Assembly (NCBI RefSeq): GCF_000020025.1
Contig: NC_010631.1
Location: forward strand, 120,001 to 152,000
Origin: Nostoc punctiforme PCC 73102
GTDB taxonomy: Bacteria > Cyanobacteriota > Cyanobacteriia > Cyanobacteriales > Nostocaceae
Direction: 5' to 3'
Length of the DNA stretch: 32,000 nt
Position 1 is the first letter of the stretch; each line of letters starts with the position of its first letter. Shown here piece by piece: positions 1-28,536 of the stretch. The notes under the pieces were generated by a model. The model did no database searches. It was not told the origin of the DNA and was given only the letters and a program-made list of their open reading frames with translations. The translations under genes and the position numbers were made by a program.

Positions 1-1707
1 GCATTGAAGTTTTATCAAGAATCTTTAACTATTCTCCAACAGATTGGTGACAAAGCAGGCGAAGGCAAAACTTTTCATAATATTGGAGAAGTTTATCAAA
101 GGCAAAGACAATATATAAAAGCCTTTAAAATTTATCAGGAATCTTTAAGTATTTTTAAACAAATCGGCGATAAAGCAGGTGAAGGCATAACTCTTAATAA
201 TATTGGTGGGGTTTATTATAACCAGGGAGAGTATGCCAAAGCTTTGGAATTCCATCAGGAAGCTTTAGCAATTGTCAAACAAGTTGGTGATAAAGCGGCA
301 GAAGGAACATATCTTAATAATATTGGTTCAGCTTACGAGAAATTAGGACAATATGATAATGCTGAAAAAACGCTATTTACCGCAATTGAGATTTGGGAAG
401 ATTTGCGAAAGAATGGATTAACTGATGCTCATAAAATTTCCATCTTTGAAAAACAAGCCGAAACCTACCGCTTTCTGCAAAAAGCATTAATTGCCCAGAA
501 TAAAATTAATTCTGCACTAGAAGTAAGCGATCGCGCCAAATCTAGAGCCTTTATTGAGTTACTAGCCTCAAAGCAATTAGAAAAACCAAACCCACTATTA
601 AATATCAAACCCCTCGCACTCCAGCAAATTAAAAACGTCGCCAAGGTTGAGAATGCAACCCTTGTGCAGTATTCAATTATTGGCAATGAAGCACTCTACA
701 TTTGGGTAATTAAACCTACAGGTGAAATAGCTTTTGAGCAAGTTGACTTGAAAAAAAGTCTAAATACTTCTCTAGAAAACCTTGTTATTAACAACCGTAA
801 AACTCTGGGTGTGAGAAGTCGGGGTATTAAAGTGGAACCTAAAAGTGGCGGTAATCAAAAACAGCAGTTACAAAAACTCTATGAAATACTAATCAAACCC
901 ATCGCCCAATATTTACCAAAAGATTCTAATGCTCGTGTTATCTTCGTTTCTCAAGAATCGTTGTTTCTTGTACCTTTTCCAGCATTGCAAGATGAGCAAG
1001 GCGAGTACTTAATCGATAAACATACTATCCTGACTGTACCTGCCATTCAAGTGTTAGATTTAACCACCAAGCAGAAGCATAACCTTAACAAGTCTGCAAA
1101 AGATGTGCTGGTTATTGGCAATCCTATCATGCCTAAAATTCCCATTACAAATGAACAGTTGTCATCCCTTCCTGGTGCAGAAACAGAAGCAATACAGATT
1201 GCAGATTTATTTAAAACCAAAGCAATTATAGGTAGCAAAGCTACCGAGACAGCCATTGTCCCGAAGATGAGCAAAGCTAGGATAATTCATTTTGCTACCC
1301 ACGGCTTACTTGATGATTTTAAAGGATTCGGTGTGCCTGGTGCGATCGCCTTTGCTCCTAGTAATCAAGACGACGGCTTCCTAACATCAGGCGAAATTCT
1401 CGACATGAAACTCAACGCCGAACTCATTGTCCTTAGTGCTTGCAACACTGGAGGCGGAAATATTACAGGCGATGGTGTTATTGGTTTATCGCGTTCTTTG
1501 ATCACTGCTGGAGTACCCAGCGTCATCGTATCCCTGTGGGATGTGAATGATAATTCCACCGCCTTTTTAATGAGCGAATTTTATGATCATTTCCAGCAAA
1601 ATCCCGATAAAGCTGTAGCGTTACGCAAAGCAATGCTCACTACCAAAAAGCGATATACAAATCCTCTTTACTGGGCTGCCTTTACCCTCATTGGTGAAGC
1701 AGATTAA
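1..1707 (+). CDS. TPR-repeat + CHAT-domain (caspase-fold) protease; 5' end cut by the window edge
   Basis: Frame 1 is open from base 1 (track ORF 4..1707). The N-terminal part has 40-aa TPR-like units (GDKAGEG.TLNNIG.VY.NQG.YAKAL.F.QEAL). The C-terminal CHAT hallmarks are IIHFATHG (His) and LSACNTG (Cys). It ends WAAFTLIGEAD like the other paralogues here. Confidence 0.9.
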   Translation, partial: ALKFYQESLTILQQIGDKAGEGKTFHNIGEVYQRQRQYIKAFKIYQESLSIFKQIGDKAGEGITLNNIGGVYYNQGEYAKALEFHQEALAIVKQVGDKAAEGTYLNNIGSAYEKLGQYDNAEKTLFTAIEIWEDLRKNGLTDAHKISIFEKQAETYRFLQKALIAQNKINSALEVSDRAKSRAFIELLASKQLEKPNPLLNIKPLALQQIKNVAKVENATLVQYSIIGNEALYIWVIKPTGEIAFEQVDLKKSLNTSLENLVINNRKTLGVRSRGIKVEPKSGGNQKQQLQKLYEILIKPIAQYLPKDSNARVIFVSQESLFLVPFPALQDEQGEYLIDKHTILTVPAIQVLDLTTKQKHNLNKSAKDVLVIGNPIMPKIPITNEQLSSLPGAETEAIQIADLFKTKAIIGSKATETAIVPKMSKARIIHFATHGLLDDFKGFGVPGAIAFAPSNQDDGFLTSGEILDMKLNAELIVLSACNTGGGNITGDGVIGLSRSLITAGVPSVIVSLWDVNDNSTAFLMSEFYDHFQQNPDKAVALRKAMLTTKKRYTNPLYWAAFTLIGEAD

Positions 1708-1755: not shown

Positions 1756-3201
1756 TTGAAAAAAATTCAGACTTACTTTGTACAATCAATTTGTCTATGT
1801 ATTCTCGCCATTACCTACTTGCCTAATATCAATATTTTGGCAAATAACAAGGTTTTAGCGCAAACCACAAATGCCGATGAACCATCAATTCTAGAAACCC
1901 AAACTTCCACCTCTAACCGATTACAAAAATTACTCATTGAACAGAATAAACCTGAAGCAGCGTTAGAAATTTCCGAACGCAGCCGTAACCGTGCATTAGT
2001 AGATATATTGAGTGATCGCTCGTCTTCATCAGTTGTTAAACCTTTAAGTACTGAACAAATTAAACAAGTTGCTAAACAACAAAATGCTACACTTGTTCAA
2101 TATTCAATCATTAATGATGAATTCAACATTGAAGGCAAAAAGCAAACTAGAGAATCAGAATTGTATATTTGGGTGATTAAACCTACAGGCGAAATAGCAT
2201 TTCGTAGCGTTGACTTAAAACCACTATGGCAGAAAGAAAATACATCTTTAGCTGATTTAATTACTCACAGTCGTCGGACTCTTGGTGTCAGCAGTAATTA
2301 TCTAAAAGGCATTGTTATTCTTAAGCATCCTGAACAGAAAAATAACCCTAGTCAACAATTACAAAAACTACATCAACTATTAATTGCACCCATCGCCAAC
2401 ATATTACCAAATCAAGCAGATGCACACATTATCTTCATTCCCCAAGGTGAATTATTTCTTGTACCTTTCACAGCATTAAAAGATACTAAAGGCAAATACT
2501 TGATTGAGCAACATACCATTTCCACTGCACCCTCTATTCAAGCATTAAATTTACTTTATCAGCGACAACAGAAAATTCAAGGAGTAGCTAAAGATGTACT
2601 AATTGTGGGTAATCCTACTATGCCTAGCATTTCCCTAAAGCCTGGAGAGTCTCCACAAAAACTATCGCAACTACCAGGTGCAGAACAAGAAGCAAAAGAC
2701 ATTGCAAGTATATTTAACACCCAAGCACTCACAGGTGATGCAGCCACAGAAACCACAGTTGTTCAAAAAATGCCCCAAGCCAAAATTATTCACTTAGCAA
2801 CCCAAGGCGGATGTAATGATTCATTAGAAATAACTTGCGGACTTGCACTTGCACCTTCACAACAAGACGATGGCTGGCTAACATCTGAAGAAATTCTAAA
2901 GTTGAACCTCAAAGCTGATTTAGTTGTGTTGAGTTCAAATGATACAGCACTAGGAAAAATCACTGCCGATGGTGTGATTGGCCTATCTCGTTCTTTCTTC
3001 GCAGCCGCAGTTCCCAGCGTGATTGGTTCTTTATGGAGTGTACCTGATAAAGAGACTGCCTTTTTAATGATAGAGTTTTATCAAAAACTCAGTGAAAACC
3101 CAGATAAAGCTGCTGCCTTGCGTCATGCGATGCTAGCAACTATGAAAAAATACCCAAATCCCAGAGATTGGGCGGCTTTTACCCTGATTGGTGTGTTGTA
3201 G
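1756..3201 (+). CDS. CHAT-domain paralogue without TPR array; predicted catalytically inactive (pseudoprotease), with N-terminal leader
   Basis: 481-aa ORF with a TTG start that is needed to encode the hydrophobic leader MKKIQTYFVQSICLCILAITYL...KVLAQT. It aligns along its length with the CHAT halves of its neighbours. The His motif reads HLATQG (CAA at 2803..2805) and the Cys motif reads LSSNDT (AAT at 2938..2940). Confidence 0.85.
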   Translation: MKKIQTYFVQSICLCILAITYLPNINILANNKVLAQTTNADEPSILETQTSTSNRLQKLLIEQNKPEAALEISERSRNRALVDILSDRSSSSVVKPLSTEQIKQVAKQQNATLVQYSIINDEFNIEGKKQTRESELYIWVIKPTGEIAFRSVDLKPLWQKENTSLADLITHSRRTLGVSSNYLKGIVILKHPEQKNNPSQQLQKLHQLLIAPIANILPNQADAHIIFIPQGELFLVPFTALKDTKGKYLIEQHTISTAPSIQALNLLYQRQQKIQGVAKDVLIVGNPTMPSISLKPGESPQKLSQLPGAEQEAKDIASIFNTQALTGDAATETTVVQKMPQAKIIHLATQGGCNDSLEITCGLALAPSQQDDGWLTSEEILKLNLKADLVVLSSNDTALGKITADGVIGLSRSFFAAAVPSVIGSLWSVPDKETAFLMIEFYQKLSENPDKAAALRHAMLATMKKYPNPRDWAAFTLIGVL

Positions 3202-3223
3202 TTCCAGATTAGGTTGATAAATT

Positions 3224-6200
3224 ATGCGCGATCGCCGCAGGTGGGGCATAGCCCATCGCACAAGCAGAATCATTTTAATCGCTTTGAGTGCTTTTCTTGT
3301 AACAATTGCACCTACATTCCCGCAGAATTTTTCCGGGGTTTTCTTTGCGCCACAGGTGTTAGCGCAAACATCAAATCAGCAGCAAACTGAGGCTGTCACT
3401 GGAAGTTTTATTGATTACTTTGCAGAAGAGAGACAATTTAAAGGGCATGAGGGTAGCGTTAACAGTGCGAGTTTTAGTCCTGACGGTAAGTTAATTGTGA
3501 CTGCTGGTGCTGATAATACTGCTCGTGTTTGGGATTTTGCGGGAAAGCAGGTAGCAGAATTAATTGGGCATCAAGGCAATGTTAAAAGTGCGAATTTTAG
3601 CCCGGATGGTAAGCTGATTGTCACTGCATCTTTTGATGACACTGCCCGTATTTGGGATATTTCAGGCAAACAGCTAGTTGAGCTAAAAGGACACCAAGGT
3701 AATGTTTACAGTGCGAATTTTAGCCCGGATGGAAAGGCGATCACTACAGCAGGTGCAGATAAAACCGTGCGGTTGTGGGATTTATCGGGCAAACAGCTAA
3801 GAGAATTTAAAGCCCATAATGCTAGTGTGTACAGTGCGAAGTTTAGTCCCGATGGCAAGCACATAGTGACAGCATCGGCGGATAAAACAGCGCGTGTATG
3901 GGATACGTCTGGTAAGTTGCTAGCAGAATTAAAGGGACACACGAACACAGTTTGGAGTGCAAATTTTAGTTGTGATGACAAGCGGATAGTTACAGCATCA
4001 GATGATAAAACTGCCCGCATCTGGGATTTATCTGGTAAGCAGTTAGCGGTTTTGCAAGGGCATCAAGATAGTGTTTATAGTGCGAATTTTAGTCCTGATA
4101 GTAAGCAGATTGTGACAGCATCGATTGATTTTGCTACTTTGCTGTGGGAGTCATCAGGGACGTTATTAGGGAAGTTACAACAGCATACTGGTGGGGTTAA
4201 TAGTGCGAACTTTAGCCCAGATGGAAAGTGGATTGTAACTGCCTCATCTGACAGTACCGCTCGTGTTTGGGATTTGTCTGGTAAGATGCTAACTGAACTG
4301 ACTAGCTTTCAACGTGAGGTTGGCAGTGCAAGGTTTAGTTCTGATGGACAACATATCGTTACAAAAAGTGGCAACATCGCCCAAGTGTGGGATTTGTCAA
4401 ACCGACAATTAGTTGAATTCAAAGGCCATCAAGCTGACATTAGAAGTGTTAGATTTAGCCAGAATGGAGAGCTTCTCGTCACTGCATCTGATGACAAAAC
4501 AGCTCGGATATGGGATTTGTCTGGTAAGCAACTAGCTGAACTAAAAGGACATGAGGATTTTATCTATGATGCTAGATTCAGCCCTAATGGAAAAAGTATT
4601 ATTACTGCATCTAATGACAAAACATCTCGGATATGGGATTTGTCTGGTAAGCAACTAGCTGAACTTAAGCATCAGGACTATGTTAGTAGTGCAACTTTTA
4701 GTCCTGATGGACAGAAAATTCTCATTGAATCTGGCAGTTTTACATTAAGTATTTGGGATATTTATGGTAAATTCCTAGCCACAATCAAAGGAGATAAATT
4801 TGATATCAACAGTGGTACTTTTAGTCCTGATGGACAGCGGATTCTGACCACTTCACTTGATGATACTGCCCGCGTTTTTGACATTTACGGAAAGTTATTA
4901 ACCGAATTCAGAGGGCATCAAGAGCAAGTAATAAATGCTAATTATAGCCCTAATGGACAACGAATTGTGACTGCATCTCTAGATGGTACTATTCGTGTAT
5001 GGGACACTTCTGGCAAGCAGCTAACTCTACTCAAAGGGCATAAAGGTAGCGTCAATAGTGCCAGTTTTAGTCCTGATGGAAAAGTTATTGTCAGTGCATA
5101 TGACGACAAAACTATCCTTGTTTGGGATACATCTGGCAAAATACTAGCTCAAATAGGAACACCCAAAAATGAATCTGAAGCTGGGTTTCAAGGAAAGAAA
5201 TTTAGTCCTAATGATTCCGAAATTATCAAGCTCGATAGTTTTAGTCCAGATGGCAAGCGTATAGTCATTGATAACCGCGTGTGGTCATTATCCAATAAGC
5301 TACTTGTTCAAATACCCAAACTAAAGTTTCCTGAAATACCTACAGATGAAAGTAGTCTCAGATTAATCTTTAGTGTGACTAAGGTCAACAGTACCAATTT
5401 TAGTCATGATGGACAGATGATTATCACTTCTAGTAAAGGTATTGTTTATTTATGGAATAGTTCTGGTAAGTTGTTAGCAGAACTCAAAAAACATTGGGGA
5501 CCAATTAGAAGTGCAAGTTTTAGCTCTAATGGACAGCAGATCGTCACTGCATCCTATGACGGTACTGCCCGTATATGGGATACTTCAGGCAAGGAGTTAG
5601 CACTGCTTAATCATAATTCTTTTGTTAACAGTGCTAGCTTTAGTCCTAATGGAAAGCAAATTGTTACTGCATCTGATGACAATACTGCTCGTGTTTGGAA
5701 TAGTTCGGGTAAGTTATTAACGGAACTTAAAGGTCATACACAACCAGTCTTAAGTACAAGTTTTAGCTTAGATGCCAAGCACATTGTTACTGCATCTGCT
5801 GACAAAACTGCCCGTGTTTGGGATTTATCTGGCAAACAGCTAGCAGAACTTCAACATTCTGCGATCGTCAGCAGTGCTAATTTTAGCTCAGATGGAAAAC
5901 AGATTATTACTACATCTCATGACGGTAGTGCTGGTGTATGGGATTTGAATAACAAAACAGCAGTACGTCTGAGTCATCAGCATATTGTCAATGAAGCTAG
6001 ATTTAGCCCGGATGAAAAGCTAGTTATAACGGCATCCAGAGACGGAACTGCTCGTGTATGGGATTTGTCTGGCAAACAAATAGTGTTGTTCAAACATCAA
6101 AGCAGTGTCAATAGTGCTAATTTTAGTCCTGATGGAAAGCAAATTATTACCGCATCTGATGATAAGACTGCTCGTGTTTGGAACTTATCTGGAAAACTGT

Positions 6201-9200
6201 TACTTGAATTAAAAAAAAGCGAGACTACTCTTAACAGTGCTAGTTTTAGCCCGGATGGCAAGCGGATTGTTACCACATCTGATGACGGTACTGCTCGCTT
6301 ATGGAACACTTCCGGCAAGTTGTTAATGGTTCTCAAAGGTCGTCCAGATTGGTTACTAGATGCCAGTTTTAGCCCGGACGGCAAGCAGATTGTTACCGCA
6401 TCTGATGATGGTACTGCTCGTTTATGGAATACTTCTGGTAAGATACTAGCCGAACTCAAAGGGCAAGAGAAGACTGTTAAAAGTGCTAGTTTTAGCCCAG
6501 ATGGGCAAAAAATAGTGACCGTATCCTTTGATGCTGCATCCTCTAGTGGTGCTGTACGTCTATGGGATTTATCTGGTAAACTGCTAGTTGAACTTCAAGG
6601 GCATCAAGGACAAGTCTTGTGTGCTAATTTTAGCGCCAATGGACAAAGAATAGTGACTGCCTCCGATGACAAGACTGCCCGTGTATGGGATTTATCCGGT
6701 AAGCAGATAGCAATCCTTAGTCATCAAGGTGGAGTCAACAGAGCAATTTTTAGTCCAGATGGACAAAGAATAGTGACTGCCTCCGATGACGGCACTGCTC
6801 ATTTATGGGATTTATCGGGCAAGTTACTTACCCAATTCAAAGAACATCAAGATGCTATCCAGAGTGTCAGTTTTAGCCCTAATGGACAACTGGTAGTAAC
6901 TGCATCTTGGGATGGCACTGCCCGTGTATGGAATTTGTCCGGCAAGCAGATAGTGCTTTTCAATCATCAGCGTGAAGTTATTGATACGAGTTTTAGTCCA
7001 AATGGACAATACATTGTTACTGCATCCATTGACAACACAGCTCGTTTATGGGATTTATCAGGTACGTTGCTTGTTGAATTTGTAGGATACCAAGGTGGTA
7101 TAGGCAGTGCTAATTTTAGTCCTGATGGACAATGGATTATTAACCTAGAATATGACAAACCTTCTCTTTGGAATTTGTCCTTGAGATTTCCATTAAGATT
7201 TCCTAAAGCCAGCATTTATGCATATGAAGATACTTTTCCAAACACATCTGTCGAAAAGTCTACAGCACTTCTTAAAGAATATTGGGTAAATATTGGCAGT
7301 GCAAAATTTAGCCCTGATGGACAACGCATTATCTCTGTTTTTAGTGACGGTAGCACTCGTGTATGGGATTTATCTGGAAGACTGCTAGCTTTTATTAAGG
7401 GGCATCAAGGTAGGGTTACAAGTTCTAATTTTAGCCCTGATGGACAAAGAATTCTCACCACATCTAATGATGGTACTGCCCGTATATGGGATTTGTCTGG
7501 TAAGCAACTTGCGAGTTTGGAGTTGCCAGCACTTCCTTCTTCACCAAAAGTGGAAGCAGACAGACTCCAAAATTTAGAATTTTATGCCCCTAATTGTGCC
7601 GCAGCATTTGAGCCTTGGCAAAAAGCCCTCAAAATCTACAGCGAAATTGCAGACCATGAAAATCAAGCTTATATGCTACGAGAACTAGGAAATGCTTACT
7701 ATTGCCTGGGCAACTTTACAAAAGCAATTGCCTCTTATTCCCAGTCATTAGAAAATGCTAGCAAATATAATTATCTGCAAATTGAGTTGAATAGTTTATC
7801 CAATTTAGGACGTGTTTACAATTCTTTAGGAGATTATGATATAGCGATTAAATATTATAATGAAGCATTAAAAATTTTAGATATGCATGACGCTCCTCAA
7901 AATAAAACAGATGTTTTACGTGGTAGAGGATATGCTTACTATCAAAATAATAAACTTGAGGAAGCAAGTAAGGATTATCTACAAGCGTTAGACATTGACG
8001 AAAAAAATAAAAATGTTGCTGGGATCGCTATAAATAAAGTAAATTTGGCTAATATTTATTTTTATTTAGGTGACTTTTTCCAAGCAATTCAATATTACAG
8101 AGAGGCATTAGAGTTCAGCCCTAGTGAGGCACTAGCAGGTTTGGGAAATATTTACTTAGCCTTTGGTGATACTGCAAAGGCGGTTGATTTACATCAGCAG
8201 AGTTTAGCAAAAGCACAACAAGACGAAAACTATGAAATTCAGGGTAATGCACTGAACAATTTAGCTTATACCTTTCAACTATCAGGAAACTTGCCCGCAG
8301 CAGAAAAAACTTTATTTAATGCCATTAGAGTTTGGGAATCGCTTCGCTCTCGATTAGACGATGCCAACAAAATATCTATCTTTGAAAAGCAAACTCGCAC
8401 CTACCGCCTGCTACAAGAAGTGTTGATTGCTCAAAATAAACTCACTGAAGCACTAGAAATATCTGAACGCGGTCGCGCGAGAGCTTTTATTGATTTACTC
8501 AATAAACGATTATCCCCTAATCAAACAGAGCAATCAAAACTTCCAACAGTGAATATTGAACAGATTAAACAAATTGCTAAAAACGAAAATGCAACCCTGG
8601 TTCAATATTCAATTATTACTGATGAATTCAAAGTTGATGGTAAACTGCAAACTCAAGATTCAGAACTTTATATTTGGGTCATCAAACCCACGGGAGAAGT
8701 ATCATTTAATCGCAGCGATCTGAAAAATTTGTGGCAAAAAGAAAAGACAACTCTGAAGCAATTAGTTGACAAAACACGTTTCTCTATGGGTGTAAAAGAC
8801 ATCAAGAGTCGCAGTCCTGGTGGTATCAAAGTTTCAGCAGCCGAAGGGGCAAAGCAGGGCGATCGCTTACAACGACTCCATGACTTTTTAATCAAACCCA
8901 TTGCAGATATCCTACCCAGTAACCCCAATGACCGAGTTATCTTTATCCCTCAAGGTGAGTTGTTTCTTGTTCCTTTCCCCGCGCTGCAATATGACCAAAA
9001 TAAATACCTAATTGAAAAACACACCATCCTCACTGCACCATCAATTCAAGTATTGGATTTCACATCAAAGCAACAACGACGTGTAGAGAAGTTAAATGCC
9101 AAGTCTTTGATTGTCGGTAATCCGACAATGCCGAAAGTGGAGTTGGAACCAGGAAAACCCCCTGAACAATTAAAAGATTTACCTTGGGCAGAAAAAGAGG

Positions 9201-9742
9201 CCAAAGATATTGCTGAAATTCTCAAAACTCAAGCACTGACAGGTAATCAAGCCACCAAAACCGCAATTTTACAGAAAATGCCCGAAGCCGGAATTATTCA
9301 CTTTGCTACCCACGGTTTAATTGATGATAACCGGGGATTGGGAAGTGCGATCGCTCTTGCTCCTGACCCCCCTTCGTCCCCCCTTACTAAGGGGGGAAAA
9401 GAGGGGGGTAACGGTTTACTCACCGCCGAAGAAATCTTGAATCTGAAGTTAAATGCAGATTTAGTCGTTCTCAGTGCTTGCGACACCGGACGCGGACGCA
9501 TTACTGGTGATGGTGTGATTGGTTTATCTCGTTCTTTAATTAGCGCAGGTGTCCCTAGTGTCATTGTCTCCTTGTGGGCTGTTGATGATAATTCCACATC
9601 ATTTTTAATGACCGAATTCTATAACAATCTGCAACAAAAGCTTGACAAAGCCACAGCACTTAGAAAAGCTATGCTGACAACGATGCAGAAATATCCTCAA
9701 CCAAAAAATTGGGCTGCGTTTACCTTAATTGGCGAATCGTGA
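3224..9742 (+). CDS. Giant WD40-repeat + TPR + CHAT protease (2172 aa) with N-terminal leader
   Basis: Single uninterrupted ORF starting ATGCGCGATCGC. It has about 32 WD40 units (GH.G.V.SA.FSPDGK.IVTAS.D.TARVWD.SGK), then TPR units, then CHAT. The CHAT motifs are HFATHG (His codon 9311..9313) and LSACDTG (Cys codon 9479..9481). It starts only 22 bp after the preceding gene. Confidence 0.93.
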   Translation: MRDRRRWGIAHRTSRIILIALSAFLVTIAPTFPQNFSGVFFAPQVLAQTSNQQQTEAVTGSFIDYFAEERQFKGHEGSVNSASFSPDGKLIVTAGADNTARVWDFAGKQVAELIGHQGNVKSANFSPDGKLIVTASFDDTARIWDISGKQLVELKGHQGNVYSANFSPDGKAITTAGADKTVRLWDLSGKQLREFKAHNASVYSAKFSPDGKHIVTASADKTARVWDTSGKLLAELKGHTNTVWSANFSCDDKRIVTASDDKTARIWDLSGKQLAVLQGHQDSVYSANFSPDSKQIVTASIDFATLLWESSGTLLGKLQQHTGGVNSANFSPDGKWIVTASSDSTARVWDLSGKMLTELTSFQREVGSARFSSDGQHIVTKSGNIAQVWDLSNRQLVEFKGHQADIRSVRFSQNGELLVTASDDKTARIWDLSGKQLAELKGHEDFIYDARFSPNGKSIITASNDKTSRIWDLSGKQLAELKHQDYVSSATFSPDGQKILIESGSFTLSIWDIYGKFLATIKGDKFDINSGTFSPDGQRILTTSLDDTARVFDIYGKLLTEFRGHQEQVINANYSPNGQRIVTASLDGTIRVWDTSGKQLTLLKGHKGSVNSASFSPDGKVIVSAYDDKTILVWDTSGKILAQIGTPKNESEAGFQGKKFSPNDSEIIKLDSFSPDGKRIVIDNRVWSLSNKLLVQIPKLKFPEIPTDESSLRLIFSVTKVNSTNFSHDGQMIITSSKGIVYLWNSSGKLLAELKKHWGPIRSASFSSNGQQIVTASYDGTARIWDTSGKELALLNHNSFVNSASFSPNGKQIVTASDDNTARVWNSSGKLLTELKGHTQPVLSTSFSLDAKHIVTASADKTARVWDLSGKQLAELQHSAIVSSANFSSDGKQIITTSHDGSAGVWDLNNKTAVRLSHQHIVNEARFSPDEKLVITASRDGTARVWDLSGKQIVLFKHQSSVNSANFSPDGKQIITASDDKTARVWNLSGKLLLELKKSETTLNSASFSPDGKRIVTTSDDGTARLWNTSGKLLMVLKGRPDWLLDASFSPDGKQIVTASDDGTARLWNTSGKILAELKGQEKTVKSASFSPDGQKIVTVSFDAASSSGAVRLWDLSGKLLVELQGHQGQVLCANFSANGQRIVTASDDKTARVWDLSGKQIAILSHQGGVNRAIFSPDGQRIVTASDDGTAHLWDLSGKLLTQFKEHQDAIQSVSFSPNGQLVVTASWDGTARVWNLSGKQIVLFNHQREVIDTSFSPNGQYIVTASIDNTARLWDLSGTLLVEFVGYQGGIGSANFSPDGQWIINLEYDKPSLWNLSLRFPLRFPKASIYAYEDTFPNTSVEKSTALLKEYWVNIGSAKFSPDGQRIISVFSDGSTRVWDLSGRLLAFIKGHQGRVTSSNFSPDGQRILTTSNDGTARIWDLSGKQLASLELPALPSSPKVEADRLQNLEFYAPNCAAAFEPWQKALKIYSEIADHENQAYMLRELGNAYYCLGNFTKAIASYSQSLENASKYNYLQIELNSLSNLGRVYNSLGDYDIAIKYYNEALKILDMHDAPQNKTDVLRGRGYAYYQNNKLEEASKDYLQALDIDEKNKNVAGIAINKVNLANIYFYLGDFFQAIQYYREALEFSPSEALAGLGNIYLAFGDTAKAVDLHQQSLAKAQQDENYEIQGNALNNLAYTFQLSGNLPAAEKTLFNAIRVWESLRSRLDDANKISIFEKQTRTYRLLQEVLIAQNKLTEALEISERGRARAFIDLLNKRLSPNQTEQSKLPTVNIEQIKQIAKNENATLVQYSIITDEFKVDGKLQTQDSELYIWVIKPTGEVSFNRSDLKNLWQKEKTTLKQLVDKTRFSMGVKDIKSRSPGGIKVSAAEGAKQGDRLQRLHDFLIKPIADILPSNPNDRVIFIPQGELFLVPFPALQYDQNKYLIEKHTILTAPSIQVLDFTSKQQRRVEKLNAKSLIVGNPTMPKVELEPGKPPEQLKDLPWAEKEAKDIAEILKTQALTGNQATKTAILQKMPEAGIIHFATHGLIDDNRGLGSAIALAPDPPSSPLTKGGKEGGNGLLTAEEILNLKLNADLVVLSACDTGRGRITGDGVIGLSRSLISAGVPSVIVSLWAVDDNSTSFLMTEFYNNLQQKLDKATALRKAMLTTMQKYPQPKNWAAFTLIGES
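3443..7492 (+). repeat. In-frame array of about 32 WD40 units (about 123-126 bp each) with high unit-to-unit nucleotide similarity
   Basis: I counted the W-D / W-N dipeptide unit endings in the translation. Long near-identical nucleotide strings recur between units, for example ...tttagtcctgatgg.aagca.att.t.ac.gcatctgatga.a..actgc.cgtgt.tgg... Confidence 0.85.
9365..9408 (+). repeat. GC-run nested palindrome inserted in-frame inside the CHAT domain
   Basis: The layout is C6(9367-9372)-ttcgt-C6(9378-9383)-ttactaa-G6(9391-9396)-aaaaga-G6(9403-9408). It encodes DPPSSPLTKGGKEGG, a segment absent at the aligned position of all paralogues. Confidence 0.7.
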
Positions 9743-9883: not shown

Positions 9884-12049
9884 ATGAAACGCATTACATC
9901 TGGTATTTTACTCACTGCTTGTCTTTGGTCTGGGTTGGGGATGTTCTCTATCCGACCACAGGTGACAGCCGTTGCTCAAACCCAAGAGGATAGTAACTTA
10001 TTTTACCTTTATAATGGACAACGCATTTCCTTAAACCAGCGACAAGATGCGATCGCTGTTACTTTTAAAAAAGTCTCTACCCGGAACCCTGCGGCTCAAC
10101 CCCTTTATCTGCAACTCCAGGAATCCCTACAGGGTGGCGTTCGGGGAGGTAGTGGGGCAAAAGTTAGTCCTTTGGGCGAGAATTATGCTGTAGTGAATTT
10201 GCCTGCTGGAACCCTAAATGCCTTACAGCAGCGCATTCAGCAGCAACCCTACGTAGAAAATACTTTACCAGTCCTGACTCGTCAGCAAACCAAAGAAGTT
10301 ATTGTTTTACCCAACGAAATTATCGTTAGTTTTGACCCCAAAGTTGACGAAAGTCAGAGACAGACTATTTTACAGCAGAGTAATCTGACAATTGTGCGTC
10401 CCTTGCGCTTCAACCGCGATCGCTATCTGGTCAAATCCAAGGCGGCGGCTGGAACACAAATCCTCAATGTCGCCAACCAACTCAACAATGTCAAAGGCAT
10501 TTCCTCTGCTCAACCTAACTTCATCCAATCAATTACCGACCAAAATCTCGAAACAGCTAGCAAACAAATAGCGAATCTCAAGGGAACGGAAGATTCGGTA
10601 TTGCGAAAACTCTTACCTAGTTCCCAGTCCCCAGACCCTAGTCCCCAGTCTAGTAGAGGGATTTCTCCAAAAACCAGCTTACTCGGATTGGCGTGGCATT
10701 TGAACAGCTTACCCCTGCAACAATGTTTACCCCAACTATCTAGTTGGGAATTATTACAAACCTGCCTGCAAAAGTCTACTGTCGCCACAAAATCTCCTGT
10801 CTCCCGCACAGATATTCGCGTCACCGAAGCTTGGAAACGTAGCAACGGCGGACGCGGTGTAGTTGTCGCAGTCATAGATAGCTTGATTCAATGGGATCAT
10901 CCTGATTTGGCAGGTAGTCTCTATACTGTGAAAGCGGCTGACAAATGTCCAGATGAAGTCCACGGGTGGGATTTTTCTAGTGGTGGTAATAGTCTCGACC
11001 CCTGCGAAATCGGCGATGGCGATACCCGCATCAGTCGTACTGAACTTGCTATTCTCACAGCCAAATTTCAAGATACCTTCAAATTATCGGATGCAGAATT
11101 AATTCGGCAATATTCTGTTGAAGCGCTGGAGATGAAACAAAAATACCCAAATGCGTCTTTTGAGGAAATTGCTCAGATTTTACGTTACGTTTTTCGCACT
11201 TATAAAGTCGGGGCAGAATTTCATGGTACTTGGGTGAGTGGAATAATTGCCGCTAAACCCCAAGATAATCAGGGATTGGTGGGTGTAGCGCCCAATGCTC
11301 AAATTTTACCTGTGCGGTTGTTTGGATTGAATGGAAGTTACAGTCCTTCTGCCTATATTGAAGCCATTGGTTACGCAGCCGATCGCGGTGCTGATATCAT
11401 TAATCTCAGTTTGGGTAGTACCCTACCAACTGATGGAGAAGAAGAAGCGATCGCAGATGTTCTCAAGGCACATCCTAAACTAGTAATTGTGGCTGCTGCT
11501 GGTAACGAAAACTCTAACCGTGTCGCCTATCCCGCCGCCTATCCGGGAGTAGTGGCTGTTGGTGCAACAAATCTTTTAGGTAATCGCGCTCCTTACAGTA
11601 ACTACGGCAAAGGTTTAGCCATAGTTGCACCAGGAGGAGACTTAAATACCCCAGGAATGCTGGGCGGAATTCCCACCACAGGCGGTACTTGGCTGGATGC
11701 TTTTTGGCAAGGAATGTCCGCCCCTGAATCTCGTTGGTCTACGGTGCTGGATGCGCGGGGCAAATATTGGTGGGTGGAAGGCACATCCTTTGCATCACCA
11801 GCCGTCGCGGGGGTAGTGGCTTTGATGAAAGGAGAAAATAAAGAAATTAGCAGACAAAGTTTGGTGAGTATTTTAAAATCCACAGCTAGTTATCAAGGGC
11901 TAGCTATCTCTGATGATGATGCTAGGAGATATCGCTCACAGCGACGCAAAGGTGAAGTTTCATCTGCGGTTAAAGGTCAGCCTTACTTTTTTGGCAAAGG
12001 ACTGGTGAATGCTAATGCCGCAGTCAAGGCGGTGAAAGAAAAGCGATAA
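9884..12049 (+). CDS. S8 (subtilisin-like) serine peptidase with N-terminal leader and propeptide-like region
   Basis: Catalytic triad motifs are VVAVIDS (Asp codon 10877..10879), HGTWVSG (His codon 11222..11224) and GTSFASPAVAG (Ser codon 11786..11788). The hydrophobic N-terminus ends in VAQT. Confidence 0.9.
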   Translation: MKRITSGILLTACLWSGLGMFSIRPQVTAVAQTQEDSNLFYLYNGQRISLNQRQDAIAVTFKKVSTRNPAAQPLYLQLQESLQGGVRGGSGAKVSPLGENYAVVNLPAGTLNALQQRIQQQPYVENTLPVLTRQQTKEVIVLPNEIIVSFDPKVDESQRQTILQQSNLTIVRPLRFNRDRYLVKSKAAAGTQILNVANQLNNVKGISSAQPNFIQSITDQNLETASKQIANLKGTEDSVLRKLLPSSQSPDPSPQSSRGISPKTSLLGLAWHLNSLPLQQCLPQLSSWELLQTCLQKSTVATKSPVSRTDIRVTEAWKRSNGGRGVVVAVIDSLIQWDHPDLAGSLYTVKAADKCPDEVHGWDFSSGGNSLDPCEIGDGDTRISRTELAILTAKFQDTFKLSDAELIRQYSVEALEMKQKYPNASFEEIAQILRYVFRTYKVGAEFHGTWVSGIIAAKPQDNQGLVGVAPNAQILPVRLFGLNGSYSPSAYIEAIGYAADRGADIINLSLGSTLPTDGEEEAIADVLKAHPKLVIVAAAGNENSNRVAYPAAYPGVVAVGATNLLGNRAPYSNYGKGLAIVAPGGDLNTPGMLGGIPTTGGTWLDAFWQGMSAPESRWSTVLDARGKYWWVEGTSFASPAVAGVVALMKGENKEISRQSLVSILKSTASYQGLAISDDDARRYRSQRRKGEVSSAVKGQPYFFGKGLVNANAAVKAVKEKR

Positions 12050-12071
12050 AATTATAGATATAGGTTGAAAA

Positions 12072-12203
12072 GCGATCGCCACATCTGGTTCAGGTTCGCT
12101 TTGATTTGGTAAAGTAATTGGATCTTGTCCACGAATTACGGCGCGTTCACGAAGTGTCTCCGAATTCGTCAATAGTAAATCGCTTTGGTGTGACAACGTT
12201 CAT
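12072..12203 (-). pseudogene. Internally deleted, frameshifted remnant of a Uma2-family endonuclease gene
   Basis: The minus strand reads ATGAACGTTGTCACACCAAAGCGATTTACTATTGAC (MNVVTPKRFTID), identical to the start of the intact gene at 27477..28064. A stop follows, then a second frame gives ...SEPEPDVAIA. Homology ends at the HIP1 site 12072..12079. Confidence 0.8.
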
Positions 12204-12295
12204 GAGACATCACCAATTTAACTGTTATGTAGTTTCCAGCTTACCATCTGTATTTATTGGCTTTTGCCCATTTTGCAACTTGCACTGTGTATCTA

Positions 12296-12367: not shown

Positions 12368-15300
12368 ATGCGCGATCGCAAACTTAGTTTAACCACATTG
12401 ATCACTCTCATCTTGAGTGTTTCACAACCCATCGCAAATTTGCCTCCACTATTCCAAGCGTCGCAAGTATTAGCGCAAACGCCAGCGAATCGTAAAGCAG
12501 AAGCAGACCGATTGTTACAGCAAGGTATTGAGCAGCTTCAAAGCAGCCAATTTGAAGCCGCATTAGAATCTTGGCAAAAAGCACTGATGATTTATCGAGA
12601 CATTCAAGATCGTCACGGAGAAGCATCAGCCCTAATTAATTTAGGAACTATTTACCTTTACTTTAATAACAATACTAAAGCAATTGAATACTTTGAACAA
12701 AGTTTAGCCATTGCTAAAGAAAACAAATATTACAACGCTCAAATTGCGGCTTTGGGCAGTTTAGGAGAAATTTATAATTCATTGGGAGACTACAAAAAAA
12801 CAATTGAGTACCATCTTTCTCGCTTAGAGGTTACAAGAAAAATAAAAAATCGATTAGCAGAGAAAGATACGTTACAAGATTTAGCAGAAGCTTACCTAGC
12901 AATGCAAAATTACCCTCAGGCAATAGAAGCCTTAGAAAATTATTTAGTCATTTCACAAAAACTTAAAGATCGTGAAGGAGAAAAGTATGCTCTAGGCTCT
13001 TTAGGAATTTATTATTACTCATCAGGAAACCATGCTAAAGCGATTGAGTATTATCGACAACCTTTAGCAATGGAGTTTTATCAACAAAAATTAATCACAG
13101 CACGAAAAAATAAAAATCGGCAGGTAGAAGCAAGTGCAATTGGGATTATTGCTATTGTTTATGATGCTTTAGGAGATAACACAAAAGCAATTGAATACTA
13201 CGAGGAGCGAATCAAAATTGCGCGTGAACTTAAAGATAAAGAAAACGAAGGACATTATCTTGCTAATCTTGGTTATGCTTACTTAAAAGTCAATCATTAC
13301 AGTAAAGCAGTTGAATCTGCACAAAAAGGTTTAGAAATTGCCAGGGAACTCAAAAACTTCCAAAAACAGGCAGTATGTCTGAGGGTTTTAGGTGAATCAT
13401 ACTCTGGGCTGAATGACAATAAGCAAGCCAACTATTATTATCAGCAATTATTGGCTCTATCACAAGATAAAAAAGATATACCTGATGAAATAGAAATATT
13501 AAGTTCCTTAAGTATTACTTATCGTGAACTTGGATATTATACACAAGCAATAGAATTTGCACAAAGACATTTGTTAATTGCACGAAAACTAAACGACAAA
13601 ATACAGCAGGCAGAAGCACTCACAAATTTAGGAGCAGTTTATAATGATTTAGGCAATTATATCCAAGCCATAGAATATCATAAAGAAAGTTTAAAAATTG
13701 CACAAGAAATTAAATCAATTACTCATGAAGCTAATTCTTTGGGAGAATTAGGGATTGCTTATTTTGATATTAATGATTATGTTAAAGCACTTGATTACTA
13801 TCAACAATTTTTAGCTATAGCCCAAAAACTCAAAGATAAACAAAATGAAGGAATTGCTTTAAGTGAATTAGGTCTTGTTTATGACCAAATAGACGACCAT
13901 AAAAAAGCTATTAATTATTATCAGCTATCTTTAGCTATTGCACGAGAACTTAAAGAAACTCTCCTAGAGGCAAATACTTTAATGAATCTAGGTAGAGCCT
14001 ATATATCTTTGGGAAACTATACAAAAGCAATTGAGTATACACAACAAGGTCTATTTTTAAGCAAAAAGATTAATTATCCTTTAGGAAAAGGATTTGGATC
14101 TACAAATTTAGGACTAGCTTTGTATAGAACTGGTAAACTAGCAGAAGCTGAAAAAGTTTTGGTTGATGGAATTCAAGTTTGGGAATCTTTGCGCTCAGGA
14201 CTTGGGAATAACGATATTCATAAAGTTTCAATTTTTGATAAGCAAGCAAGCATCTACCCTATACTGCAACAAGTTTTAATTGCTCAAAATAAAAATGATG
14301 AGGCTCTAGAAATTGCTGAAAGGGGGCGTTCTAGAGCGTTGTTAGACTTATTAAACTCACGCTTATCTAACAACAATTCCACTCAGTCATTCCAACTCAA
14401 TTTCCAGCAACCTACACTATCACTGCTACAACAAATTGCCAAACAGCAAAAAGCGACACTTATTGAATACTCTATTATTGCTGATAATTTTAAAATTCAG
14501 GGTAAACAAGTAACTTATGAATCAGAACTCTATATCTGGGTAATCAAACCCGCAGGTGAAGTTACCTTCCGCAAAGCTGACCTGAAACCCCTGTGGCAAA
14601 AAGAAAACTCAACCCTTGGCAATCTTGTTATCACCAGTCGTAACTCTATCGGTGCAACAAGTACACCTTTTCGCGGTGCTGTTGATGTAGTTGGTAAACC
14701 CAATGCACCCAAAGCCAAAAATAATTTAAAGCGTCTACACGAATTATTAATCAACCCCATCGCTGACTTATTACCCAAAAATTCTAACGATCACGTTATC
14801 TTCATTCCCCAAAGTAGCCTATTCCTCGTCCCCTTCGCCGCATTACAAGACGCAGACGGTAAATACCTAATTGAAAAACACACTATTCTCACATCACCAT
14901 CAATTCAAGTTTTAGATTTAACCCACAAACAGAAACAACGGACAGGCACAAAACCGATAGAAGGAAAAGATACGCTGATTGTTGGTAATCCAATGATGCC
15001 TTTTCTAGCACCAAAAATCGGCGAAACTCCGCAACAATTAATTTCTTTACCTGGTGCAGAACTTGAAGCAAATGCAATTAGCAAATTACTCAAAACCGAA
15101 CCTCTGATCGGCAACAAAGCAACAGAAGCAACTATAGTCAAGCGTTTACCCCAAGCGCGATTTATTCATTTAGCAACACACGGCATATTTGATGATATCC
15201 AAGGATTAAATAGTGGAATTGCTTTGACTCCATCGGGTAAAGAGGATGGATTATTAACAGCCTCGGAAATCCTCGATCTGAAGCTAAATGCCGAATTAGT

Positions 15301-15580
15301 CGTGTTAAGCGCTTGTGACACCGGACGCGGAAGGATTTCTGGGGATGGGGTAATTGGTTTATCTCGTTCCTTAATTAGTGCTGGTGTCCCCAGCGTCTTA
15401 GTATCGCTGTGGTCGGTTCCAGATACGCCTACAGCACTATTAATGACGGAATTTTATCAAAATCTTCAAAAGAGCCAAGACAAAGCGCAAGCACTGCGAC
15501 AGGCGATGCTGACGACGATGAAAATTAATCCGAATCCCGTTGATTGGGCAGCTTTTACTCTCATTGGCGAAGCTGAGTAG
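12368..15580 (+). CDS. TPR-repeat + CHAT protease (1070 aa) with N-terminal leader
   Basis: Starts ATGCGCGATCGC (MRDRKLSLTTLITLILSV...QVLAQT). It has a long, internally divergent TPR array. The CHAT motifs are HLATHG and LSACDTG, and it ends WAAFTLIGEAE. Confidence 0.93.
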   Translation: MRDRKLSLTTLITLILSVSQPIANLPPLFQASQVLAQTPANRKAEADRLLQQGIEQLQSSQFEAALESWQKALMIYRDIQDRHGEASALINLGTIYLYFNNNTKAIEYFEQSLAIAKENKYYNAQIAALGSLGEIYNSLGDYKKTIEYHLSRLEVTRKIKNRLAEKDTLQDLAEAYLAMQNYPQAIEALENYLVISQKLKDREGEKYALGSLGIYYYSSGNHAKAIEYYRQPLAMEFYQQKLITARKNKNRQVEASAIGIIAIVYDALGDNTKAIEYYEERIKIARELKDKENEGHYLANLGYAYLKVNHYSKAVESAQKGLEIARELKNFQKQAVCLRVLGESYSGLNDNKQANYYYQQLLALSQDKKDIPDEIEILSSLSITYRELGYYTQAIEFAQRHLLIARKLNDKIQQAEALTNLGAVYNDLGNYIQAIEYHKESLKIAQEIKSITHEANSLGELGIAYFDINDYVKALDYYQQFLAIAQKLKDKQNEGIALSELGLVYDQIDDHKKAINYYQLSLAIARELKETLLEANTLMNLGRAYISLGNYTKAIEYTQQGLFLSKKINYPLGKGFGSTNLGLALYRTGKLAEAEKVLVDGIQVWESLRSGLGNNDIHKVSIFDKQASIYPILQQVLIAQNKNDEALEIAERGRSRALLDLLNSRLSNNNSTQSFQLNFQQPTLSLLQQIAKQQKATLIEYSIIADNFKIQGKQVTYESELYIWVIKPAGEVTFRKADLKPLWQKENSTLGNLVITSRNSIGATSTPFRGAVDVVGKPNAPKAKNNLKRLHELLINPIADLLPKNSNDHVIFIPQSSLFLVPFAALQDADGKYLIEKHTILTSPSIQVLDLTHKQKQRTGTKPIEGKDTLIVGNPMMPFLAPKIGETPQQLISLPGAELEANAISKLLKTEPLIGNKATEATIVKRLPQARFIHLATHGIFDDIQGLNSGIALTPSGKEDGLLTASEILDLKLNAELVVLSACDTGRGRISGDGVIGLSRSLISAGVPSVLVSLWSVPDTPTALLMTEFYQNLQKSQDKAQALRQAMLTTMKINPNPVDWAAFTLIGEAE

Positions 15581-18341: not shown

Positions 18342-19550
18342 GTGGCAAGAAACTGGAAGTGTGATGGTCAGCCCAAAAATGGCAAAATCTACTTAAATCA
18401 AAATCCTACTGGCAACCACGAACCCTATGAAAATTACGGCTTAACCTGTGTAATATGTAATTTGCCAAAAGAGGCAATGGACAATAACCGTCAATTGCCA
18501 AAATGGGTCAAACCTGCTGCTATAACTGGTGGTGCTGTTTTAACTGTCCTTATTGCTGCCTCAATATTTATAGATAAACCTTGTCCAACAGGTCAGCAAA
18601 AAATCAATAGTATTTGTTTGGCACTTTCTCCGCCTGAGAAAGAAACTCCTACCAAGCCAGTCTCTGATCCTCCCGTTAATATCTACCACACTTTAGCTGA
18701 AGTGCCTAACGTTCCCAACGGAATCATTAGATACGGCGGTTCTACAAGCTTTGCGCCGCTAAGGACTTCAGCAATAGTAGCGCTGATTATGCAAGGTCAT
18801 CCGGGATTTAAATTAGTCTACACTTCGCCACCGCCAGGAACCCAGGCTGGGTCTGGTAGCGGGATCAAGATGCTGATAGAAGGTCAACTAAATTTTTCCC
18901 AGTCTTCGCGGCCCTTAAGAGACGAAGAGTATGAAAGCGCAAAAACACGCAATTTCACTCTGGAACAGCAACCTATTGCCATTGACGGAATTGCTTTTTA
19001 CGTTCATCGTGATTTGGCTATCCCAGGTTTAACGGTATCTCAGATTAAGGATATATACACTGGGAGAATCACGAACTGGAAGCAAGTGGGTGGCCCCGCT
19101 ATTGAAATTACGCCTTTGAGCCGTGACCCTAATGATGGTGGTACTCCTGAATACTTTCAAGAAAAAGTGTTGGCGAAGGAACCATTTGCTTCATCTGTAA
19201 AACCTTATGTAATAGACACTACAACTGCTATCCGAAAGGTAGCTCAAACTCCTGGCGGGATTAGTTATGCCACTGCTTCAGAAGTTTGCCCCCAAACTTC
19301 AATTAAGCCTTTGTCAATTGCAAAACAGGCTAATCAGGGTTTTGTACCTGCTTGCATCGAAAAGCTCGTGAATAAAAATGATTTTGCGAAAGACATCTAC
19401 CCTCTGACTAGACGACTGTTTGTTGTGATTAAACGCGAACGCGATCGCACGCTGGATGAGCAGGCTGGTGTAGCTTATGTCAACTTACTTTTAAGTGATG
19501 AAGGTCAAAAATTAGTAGACCAAGCTGGTCTAGTGCCAATTCGCAACTGA
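18342..19550 (+). CDS. PstS-like (type 2 periplasmic binding protein) domain protein with a Cys-containing N-terminal tail and a single TM anchor
   Basis: GTG start 10 nt after AGGAGA (18326..18331). The TM segment is AAITGGAVLTVLIAASIFI. PstS-family blocks are IRYGGSTSFAPL, FSQSSRPLRDEE, IAIDGIAFYVH and LTVSQIKDIYTGRITNWKQVGG. No pstCAB genes are adjacent. Confidence 0.8.
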   Translation: MARNWKCDGQPKNGKIYLNQNPTGNHEPYENYGLTCVICNLPKEAMDNNRQLPKWVKPAAITGGAVLTVLIAASIFIDKPCPTGQQKINSICLALSPPEKETPTKPVSDPPVNIYHTLAEVPNVPNGIIRYGGSTSFAPLRTSAIVALIMQGHPGFKLVYTSPPPGTQAGSGSGIKMLIEGQLNFSQSSRPLRDEEYESAKTRNFTLEQQPIAIDGIAFYVHRDLAIPGLTVSQIKDIYTGRITNWKQVGGPAIEITPLSRDPNDGGTPEYFQEKVLAKEPFASSVKPYVIDTTTAIRKVAQTPGGISYATASEVCPQTSIKPLSIAKQANQGFVPACIEKLVNKNDFAKDIYPLTRRLFVVIKRERDRTLDEQAGVAYVNLLLSDEGQKLVDQAGLVPIRN

Positions 19551-19578
19551 AATAAATAATAACTCCTTAAAATCCCAG

Positions 19579-20475: not shown

Positions 20476-20570
20476 GGCAGAAAGCAAAAGTTTTGAGTTA
20501 GCCATTAACAAATAATCAAAGGTAAATAAAGCTTCATTTGTTGAAGTTAAAAAATTAAAAAGAGAAAATT

Positions 20571-25720: not shown

Positions 25721-25777
25721 ATACCTGTGAAGAGCAAGAAAACCTCTGCAATATTTAATATTTTAGGAGATACAACA

Positions 25778-28433: not shown

Positions 28434-28459
28434 TTGTTCACTCTTGCACAGCGGCTCGA

Positions 28460-28490
28460 ATTTGCATATCCTTCAGCAGGTGAGAGATAT
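28460..28490 (+). promoter_or_regulatory. Shared promoter-like motif, copy 3 (upstream of TPR-CHAT 28537)
   Basis: atttgcatatcct-tcagcaggt-gagagatat. It ends 46 nt before the ATG at 28537. Confidence 0.55.
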
Positions 28491-28536
28491 ATTATATCTC
28501 CTTAAACTCGCTGCATTACTGCTGACTCTAAAATCT

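Follow-up and report, generated by a model that had tools for sequence, protein, structure and literature searches.

We examined a 32,000-nucleotide stretch of Nostoc punctiforme PCC 73102 (contig NC_010631.1, positions 120,001 to 152,000 of the forward strand; hereafter the window), in which the gene at 1756..3201 encodes a CHAT-domain protein that lacks both residues of the catalytic His-Cys dyad. This protein, which we call the pseudo-CHAT, is very probably a maintained pseudoprotease. Because it has lost the dyad, is under purifying selection and is almost always encoded directly upstream of an active CHAT gene, it is probably a noncatalytic partner rather than the product of a decaying gene. 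Our complete explanation, an exported pseudoprotease that serves as a noncatalytic subunit of the CHAT protease encoded downstream, is evenly poised on the sequence comparisons set out below.

The CHAT protein encoded at 1756..3201 lacks a catalytic dyad

A Pfam scan of the 1756..3201 product returned CHAT (PF12770) as its sole domain, at residues 201-479 (E value 1.9e-66; 224.9 bits against a cut-off of 24), with positions 3-288 of the 289 in the profile covered. The product contains the motifs ADGVIGLSRS, VPSVIGSLW and WAAFTLIG. The same scan found no TPR and no WD40 repeats, which places the protein outside the TPR-CHAT architecture; residues 1-44 are a predicted signal peptide and linker. 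The original prediction, a brief reading of the window by itself, was correct on these points, as it was on the intact open reading frame and the 22-nucleotide distance to the next gene. The TTG start corresponds to ATG in orthologs at loci L001 (81% identical) and L011 (89%), and the N-terminus MKK..YFVQSICL is common to them (loci in other genomes carry L numbers here, and individual homologs P numbers).

The CHAT module is 53-56% identical to the four others of the window, encoded by 4..1707, 3224..9742, 12368..15580 and 28444..31602. When the modules are aligned, Gln350 (codon 2803-2805) falls on the His of (F/L)ATHG and Asn395 (codon 2938-2940) on the Cys of LSAC(D/N)TG, and both catalytic residues are kept in all four of the other modules. 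A profile search with the family also matched DdvA, a CHAT protein of solved structure (8rot), whose LATHG and LAAC motifs fall on the same two columns; a PDB sequence search with the single pseudo-CHAT sequence gave chance matches only. The catalytic dyad of DdvA consists of H862 and C907 (PMC11506125), and the match therefore supports our assignment independently. The replacements of His by Gln and Cys by Asn, first proposed from motifs alone, hold up in both comparisons. The product lacks the residues that mark an active clan CD cysteine protease, the His of A-T-H-G and the Cys of S-A-C-D/N-T-G. It is a predicted pseudoprotease, related to active enzymes with its essential catalytic residues gone.

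Loss of the dyad is beyond chance. All 42 active relatives have both His and Cys, and the dyad is kept in 146 of the 150 alignments made with the top-scoring representatives of clusters formed at 50% identity. Of the four exceptions, three are short CHAT-only proteins. The search of representatives tells us only that few of the closest alignments (4/150) have lost the dyad. It does not resolve the pseudo-CHAT clade, since identity between pseudo and active modules exceeds 50% and members of the clade are apparently represented by other sequences.

An AlphaFold2 model built on the family alignment gave a predicted local distance difference test score (pLDDT) of 83.6 and a predicted template modeling score (pTM) of 0.85. 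Residues 1-44 are disordered in the model (pLDDT below 50), and the only weak blocks within the domain are 181-200, 351-360 (pLDDT 61) and 401-410, the last two of which follow the former His and Cys. A Foldseek comparison with the PDB matched the model to Csx29, the TPR-CHAT protein of Craspase (E value 3e-15 to 1e-11, query TM-score about 0.5-0.58), and to the periplasmic TPR-CHAT of DdvA (1e-12). Separases, gingipain and SAVED-CHAT were matched as well. The alignments to Csx29 and separase cover about 470 columns, and therefore the N-terminal subdomain at residues 45-200 belongs to the common CHAT module. As modeled, the pseudo-CHAT has a caspase-hemoglobinase fold of the separase/Csx29 type. 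We conclude that it is a CHAT member by sequence and fold that stands outside both the active clan CD proteases and the TPR-CHAT architecture.

Pseudo-CHAT proteins form a clade under purifying selection

A homolog search over 5.8 billion proteins found CHAT-only proteins of about 450-490 amino acids at 57-89% identity to the 1756..3201 product, with TPR-CHAT proteins next at about 52-59%. The CHAT-only homologs come from Nostoc, Desmonostoc, Aliinostoc, Dolichospermum, Sphaerospermopsis, Scytonema, Iningainema, Rhizonema, Stigonema, Fischerella, Aulosira and Calothrix. In a neighbor-joining tree of CHAT modules, the short proteins form a single clade of 76, apart from 42 active modules. This clade spans the Nostocales, the heterocyst-forming cyanobacteria, and its members lack TPRs and carry signal peptides. 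His and Cys occur together in each of the 42 active modules and in none of the 76 clade members.

The residues that replace the dyad are diverse. The His column holds Q, S, I, T, N, V, F, Y, W, K, C or A, and the Cys column holds N, G, D or S, except in one subclade that keeps Cys paired with Gln. His is present in three tip sequences (P0002, which is 89% identical to the N. punctiforme protein, P0044 and P0066), each with Asn in the Cys column. Positional orthologs from Calothrix and Scytonema (53-57% identity) have H/G, H/A or N/C at the two positions and the full dyad in no case. The Gly after the His, which belongs to the oxyanion hole, and the Ala before the Cys are also unconstrained across the clade, and the mature chain (beyond residue 45) is free of Cys in 25 of the 58 members checked. 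What orthologs conserve is thus the absence of a complete dyad rather than the specific Gln and Asn; the idea that these two substitutions might themselves be conserved was not borne out.

The gene is very probably maintained. Ten orthologous coding sequences (from Nostoc, Desmonostoc, Dolichospermum and Stigonema) contain no frameshift and no internal stop, and additional full-length members occur in Scytonema, Aulosira and Calothrix. The ratio of nonsynonymous to synonymous substitution rates (dN/dS; Nei-Gojobori) is 0.20-0.45 over all pairs. Across identical genome pairs, it is 0.20-0.34 for the pseudo-CHAT module, 0.16-0.25 for the downstream active CHAT module and 0.13-0.24 for the neighboring S8 protease. 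Positions that are at least 90% conserved number 168 in the pseudo-CHAT clade and 187 in its active relatives. Columns that are invariant in the active enzymes yet free in the clade cluster in the loop from the catalytic His (350-359, including the Gly after it) and around the catalytic Cys (A394, C395 and G404); the remaining ones are scattered and mostly are conservative alternations between two residues. The clade has also fixed residues of its own, with T267L, G398A and L414F invariant, V424G near-invariant and about 20 further switches. Because constraint was lost at the active-site loops, the fold is conserved and the clade has fixed its own residues, these patterns point to a maintained pseudoenzyme with a remodeled former active site. 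The original prediction had likewise suggested that the gene may not be decaying and had proposed to look for purifying selection, and here the clade, the uninterrupted reading frames and the dN/dS values all agree with it.

The mature N. punctiforme protein has just two cysteines, C353 and C361 (2812..2838), which are separated by 8 residues and belong to the former His loop. They are conserved together in one subclade only (P0002, P0004, P0005, P0008, P0026 and P0028), in which they may form a periplasmic disulfide that staples this loop.

Predicted export and a conserved gene neighborhood

The N-terminus of the pseudo-CHAT has the features of a Sec signal peptide: Lys-Lys, a 16-residue hydrophobic core with a 12-residue hydropathy maximum of 2.55, and V-L-A/Q-T, with the slash at the inferred cleavage site. 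Signal peptides were called here by a rule-based sequence check. The hydrophobic core is present in 50 of 58 clade members and (V/A)-x-A/Q-(T/S) in 32 of 58; the Dolichospermum group has V-Q-A/N. A similar leader occurs on the giant WD40-TPR-CHAT protein encoded downstream, other TPR-CHATs, the S8 protease, a small TPR protein and a DUF928-like protein. Indeed, every member of the gene cluster described below has a signal peptide except the caspase-CHASE2 protein, and that of the C14-DUF4384 protein is a twin-arginine leader. We infer export of the pseudo-CHAT and of these neighbors, so any partnership between them would be periplasmic. Signal peptides had no place in the original prediction.

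The leaders of the genes starting at 1756, 3224, 9884, 12368, 25727 and 28444, and of the orthologs at L012-L020, end in (V/A)-x-A/Q-(T/S), as in QVLAQT or AVAQTQ. In TPR-CHAT proteins this cleavage-type motif often lies 10-15 residues past the hydrophobic core, giving an unusually long, conserved c-region whose role might go beyond that of a simple signal-peptidase site.

We compared 17 independent loci; a contig scan with the pseudo-CHAT gave 10 loci, and exact-protein look-ups, which gave no record for P0019 and P0090, extended the set. The recurrent gene order is DUF1822, (TPR-CHAT), caspase-CHASE2, DUF928-like, small TPR, (TPR-CHAT), pseudo-CHAT, active (WD40-)TPR-CHAT and S8 subtilase, with C14-DUF4384 farther away. 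An active (WD40-)TPR-CHAT gene lies directly downstream of the pseudo-CHAT in 16 of the 17 loci (the window, L001-L007, L012/13, L014/15 and L016-L021). This gene is the giant WD40-TPR-CHAT in the window, L001, L002, L012, L019 and L021, and an ordinary TPR-CHAT in the rest. The proposed link to the giant protein is thus supported by context as a link to an active CHAT gene directly downstream, but needs widening beyond the giant form, since the ordinary form is commoner.

A purine-rich spacer of 21-25 nucleotides precedes the giant gene in the four such loci measured (the window, L012, L019 and L021), and gaps ahead of an ordinary TPR-CHAT range from 3 to 716 nucleotides. We found no terminator-like site on the plus strand around the junction between the pseudo-CHAT and 3224..9742 in the window. 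At the Aulosira locus L021, the pseudo-CHAT and the giant gene are 21 nucleotides apart and lie away from the CHASE2 part of the cluster, which argues that the pair is the functional unit. Genome pairs that diverge more in the pseudo-CHAT also tend to diverge more in the downstream CHAT (r 0.72; partial r 0.51 given the S8 protease), a result that is only suggestive because the pairs are not independent.

A caspase-CHASE2 gene lies upstream in L002, L004, L011, L012, L014, L016, L017, L018 and L020, with DUF1822 in most of these; both are absent at L021, and the corresponding region of N. punctiforme lies upstream of the window. At L014 and in orthologs, an overlapping DUF928-like gene follows the caspase-CHASE2 gene. 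Neither PADLOC nor NCBIfam contains a model that covers the pseudo-CHAT, the caspase-CHASE2 or the DUF928-like protein. In the searchable literature we found no account of a clade of dead CHAT proteins or of its gene cluster, which has so far been seen only in Nostocales. Clustering with caspase-CHASE2, DUF1822, DUF928-like, small TPR, S8 and often C14 genes makes it plausible that these genes form an envelope proteolytic signaling or conflict module.

Three further observations concern these loci. At L020, the interval from the pseudo-CHAT to the downstream TPR-CHAT gene (11543..12258) is taken up by about 20 tandem copies of a repeat of about 22 nucleotides (GAATTCGGGAnnCCGTTTATT). The giant WD40-TPR-CHAT ortholog is split into two open reading frames at L002 (11457..17714) and L019 (3635..9863), beside an intact pseudo-CHAT in each case, reflecting either a frameshift or a sequencing error in the WD40 array. 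We also considered P0121 (2498 amino acids) as a natural fusion of pseudo and active modules and rejected it, as it is an AAA-ATPase-TPR-CHAT-TPR-CHAT protein with two active modules. The presence of both in one chain means that CHAT modules can be used in pairs.

Possible roles of the pseudo-CHAT

The mechanism that we favor would proceed in three steps. The pseudo-CHAT would be exported to the periplasm, as its signal peptide suggests. Its gene would be cotranscribed with the downstream (WD40-)TPR-CHAT gene, from which it is separated by 21-25 nucleotides or another short gap that lacks a terminator-like site. The protein would then act as a noncatalytic subunit, its preserved fold and remodeled cleft binding the protease or its substrate and so gating or targeting cleavage. 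That the partner is the adjacent active CHAT protease is a tentative assignment, which we rate at a little short of even. Several points weigh against it. We know of no precedent for CHAT-CHAT heterodimers, and the CHAT proteases known to us do not act as CHAT-CHAT dimers. Of the solved CHAT proteases, separase and Csx29 are monomers and others oligomerize via SAVED. DdvA dimerizes mainly via its TPR and scaffold regions (PMC11506125). Export itself is called from sequence rules alone, the downstream gap reaches 108-716 nucleotides in several genomes, and L011, the closest relative (89%), has an AraC-type response regulator downstream and its active TPR-CHAT upstream. The mirror-tree correlation is confounded by shared phylogeny. 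Finally, linkage to the upstream small TPR gene is equally good, and the true partner may therefore be the small TPR protein. In the main rival explanation, which we consider unlikely, the pseudo-CHAT is a predicted noncatalytic module that pairs with this small exported protein as a split, inactive TPR plus CHAT receptor for a periplasmic peptide or protein ligand, perhaps presented to the CHASE2 sensor of the caspase-CHASE2 protein. A TPR gene of about 135-173 amino acids is directly upstream in L003, L004, L006, L012, L014, L016, L017, L019 and L020, the clade has lost precisely the TPR array that all active relatives carry, and its invariant substitutions beside the former active site suggest a conserved new binding function. 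The CHASE2 protein also has an invariant cytoplasmic caspase-like dyad and matches a class predicted to be sensor-effectors (PMC8195603). However, an active TPR-CHAT gene intervenes between the small TPR and the pseudo-CHAT in the window, L002, L011 and L018, and L021 has the pseudo-CHAT and giant pair with neither a small TPR nor a CHASE2 gene nearby.

Other roles seem less probable still. The pseudo-CHAT could be a cFLIP-like gatekeeper of a periplasmic protease cascade (small TPR adaptor, (WD40-)TPR-CHAT, S8 and C14) whose output is sensed by the CHASE2 domain of the transmembrane caspase. We regard this as improbable; if true, multicellular cyanobacteria would possess a receptor-mediated, "extrinsic" pathway of an apoptosis-like or conflict type, with its threshold set by a dead protease. 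An improbable role as well is that of a decoy or pseudosubstrate, bound or cleaved by the neighboring CHAT or S8 proteases to buffer or time their activity in the manner of securin or a zymogen. Several exported proteases are indeed co-located, and the variable, low-confidence surface loops 181-200 and 351-360 could be cleavage sites, yet a loop would nearly suffice for such a function, conservation extends over the entire fold at about the level of active enzymes, and no conserved cleavage motif was identified. It is very improbable that the protein remains a protease through other residues, such as the Cys of the subclade with Gln at the His position or the loop cysteines C353/C361. One subclade does keep the catalytic Cys, and His has been regained in P0002, P0044 and P0066, but no member has both residues, the oxyanion-hole Gly is free to vary and many members have no Cys in the mature chain at all. 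We rejected C353/C361 as a substitute nucleophile on the ground that the pair occurs in one subclade only. The least credible reading is that of a recently inactivated paralog becoming a pseudogene, and we reject it on selection and conservation. CHAT genes are duplicated here and some do decay, as the remnant at 26652..27464, a truncated TPR-CHAT, illustrates, and dN/dS of the pseudo-CHAT is slightly above that of its active neighbors. Against this stand the uninterrupted coding sequences, the full-length members in further genera, the monophyly of the clade, dN/dS values well below 1 and conservation outside the active-site loops that matches that of active enzymes.

Other genes of the window

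The features discussed above and the remaining genes of interest are collected in Table 1. A genuinely decayed CHAT paralog is present in the same window, in contrast to the pseudo-CHAT. The plus-strand gene at 26652..27464 is a truncated TPR-CHAT remnant. Over 177 amino acids it shares 79% identity with the TPR part of the protein encoded at 4..1707, and it breaks off at ALEVSDR, the exact expected start of the CHAT module. It adjoins a Uma2 gene and DDE transposase fragments, with minus-strand intervals at 27477..28064 and 24466..25246. The C14-DUF4384 protein has a weak NCBIfam match, under the model cut-off, to "caspase, EACC1-associated type." Three co-directional genes occupy 18342..23897.

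Table 1. Coordinates of the pseudo-CHAT gene, its parts and its neighbors (positions in the window unless a locus is named)
Feature	Position	Strand	Description
Upstream active TPR-CHAT	4..1707	+	N-terminus cut by the window edge; equivalent to the TPR-CHAT of 989-1039 amino acids in L011 and L002
Pseudo-CHAT gene	1756..3201	+	481 amino acids; TTG start; open reading frame without interruption
Predicted Sec signal peptide, residues 1-35	1756..1860	+	KK, hydrophobic core YFVQSICLCILAITYL, V-L-A/Q-T at -3/-1
N-terminal subdomain of the CHAT module, residues 45-200	1888..2355	+	Helices and beta-sheet around ELYIWVIKPTGE; common to all active paralogs
CHAT (caspase-fold) domain, residues 201-479	2356..3192	+	Pfam
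Former catalytic His loop, residues 350-362	2803..2841	+	Begins at Gln350; hypervariable in the clade; C353, C361
Asn395 codon, catalytic Cys position	2938..2940	+	LSAC(D/N)TG replaced by LSSNDTA; clade-invariant Ala398 in place of Gly
Intergenic spacer, 22 nucleotides (TTCCAGATTAGGTTGATAAATT)	3202..3223	+	Length and purine-rich core kept in three other genomes
Downstream partner candidate	3224..9742	+	2172 amino acids; ATG at 3224; signal peptide, WD40 array, TPR region, active CHAT (FATHG, LSACDTG)
S8 subtilase	9884..12049	+	Signal peptide; conserved cluster member
Additional active TPR-CHAT	12368..15580	+	Signal peptide
Peptidase C14 (orthocaspase) with DUF4384	15698..17989	+	Twin-arginine leader (RRHFLQF); recurs near the cluster in L005, L006, L014, L017 and L021
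PBP_like_2 protein	First gene of 18342..23897	+	402 amino acids; N-terminal Cys-rich segment, transmembrane helix
Membrane protein	Second gene of 18342..23897	+	298 amino acids; no Pfam match
Tubulin_2 protein	Third gene of 18342..23897	+	1108 amino acids; zinc ribbon at the end
Small exported TPR protein	25727..26284	+	Paralog of the TPR gene of about 135-173 amino acids that precedes the pseudo-CHAT in other genomes
Caspase-CHASE2 protein	L014 6133..8571 and orthologs		About 810 amino acids; conserved N-terminal domain, caspase-like domain (invariant AGHS, NSC), transmembrane segment, C-terminal CHASE2

Discussion

The pseudo-CHAT has the same fold as the TPR-CHAT proteases Csx29 of the type III-E Craspase, separase and DdvA (8rot) over the whole module of about 430 residues (E value 3e-15 to 1e-12, query TM-score 0.46-0.58). 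Unlike these proteins, it has no TPR array, His-Cys dyad, transmembrane anchor, anti-sigma domain or CRISPR context; DdvA keeps its dyad. DdvA, a Myxococcus anti-sigma factor, is a periplasmic TPR-CHAT protein (PMC11506125), and the pseudo-CHAT is likewise predicted to be periplasmic.

By analogy, the pseudo-CHAT can be likened to pseudoproteases that are encoded with active paralogs, such as cFLIP with caspase-8 or CspC and CspA with CspB. In the first of these pairs, cFLIP regulates its active paralog, caspase-8. The comparison with caspase heterodimers drawn in the original prediction is only an analogy, and CHAT domains are not known to heterodimerize via the caspase beta-sheet edge. Like cFLIP and the cyanobacterial pseudo-orthocaspases (family C14; PMC6426788), the pseudo-CHAT has a caspase fold in which both dyad residues are replaced and which is conserved across lineages. 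Fixed replacements, Tyr and Ser, are typical of pseudo-orthocaspases, whereas the dyad positions of the pseudo-CHAT are free to vary. The pseudo-CHAT also differs from pseudo-caspases in belonging to the CHAT family rather than C14 p20/p10, in its predicted export and in having a gene that adjoins that of its putative active partner.

The closest analogy in gene neighborhood to the pseudo-CHAT and its active CHAT comes from Clostridioides difficile, in which dead CspC and CspA are encoded beside the active subtilase CspB and control a proteolytic signaling step (PMC7200643). The Csp proteins have a subtilase fold and act in spore germination, and their function has been shown experimentally, whereas the role of the pseudo-CHAT is read from sequence.

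Kaur et al. (2021) predicted that EACC2-caspase-CHASE2/DUF1822 systems are stimulus-sensing, autoproteolytically activated conflict or apoptosis-like modules (PMC8195603). Nine pseudo-CHAT loci of other genomes carry a matching caspase-CHASE2 gene a few genes upstream, most of them with DUF1822. The passages of that article that we consulted do not mention exported pseudo-CHAT, TPR-CHAT or S8 genes as components, and no extracytoplasmic function (ECF) sigma factor was seen in the loci that we examined.

CHAT proteases are abundant in multicellular cyanobacteria and, to our knowledge, almost none has a known substrate or regulator, save HetF, the CRISPR-linked Csx29 and SAVED-CHAT. A conserved dead CHAT gene directly before an active one offers a two-gene handle on the control and the substrates of these proteases. 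If the partner role is true, the principle of a live protease regulated by a dead paralog, as in eukaryotic caspases and clostridial subtilases, would reach the separase/CHAT branch and the bacterial periplasm as well. Should the connection with caspase-CHASE2 and DUF1822 be functional, the pseudo-CHAT would also provide a way into a predicted bacterial apoptosis-like signaling system.

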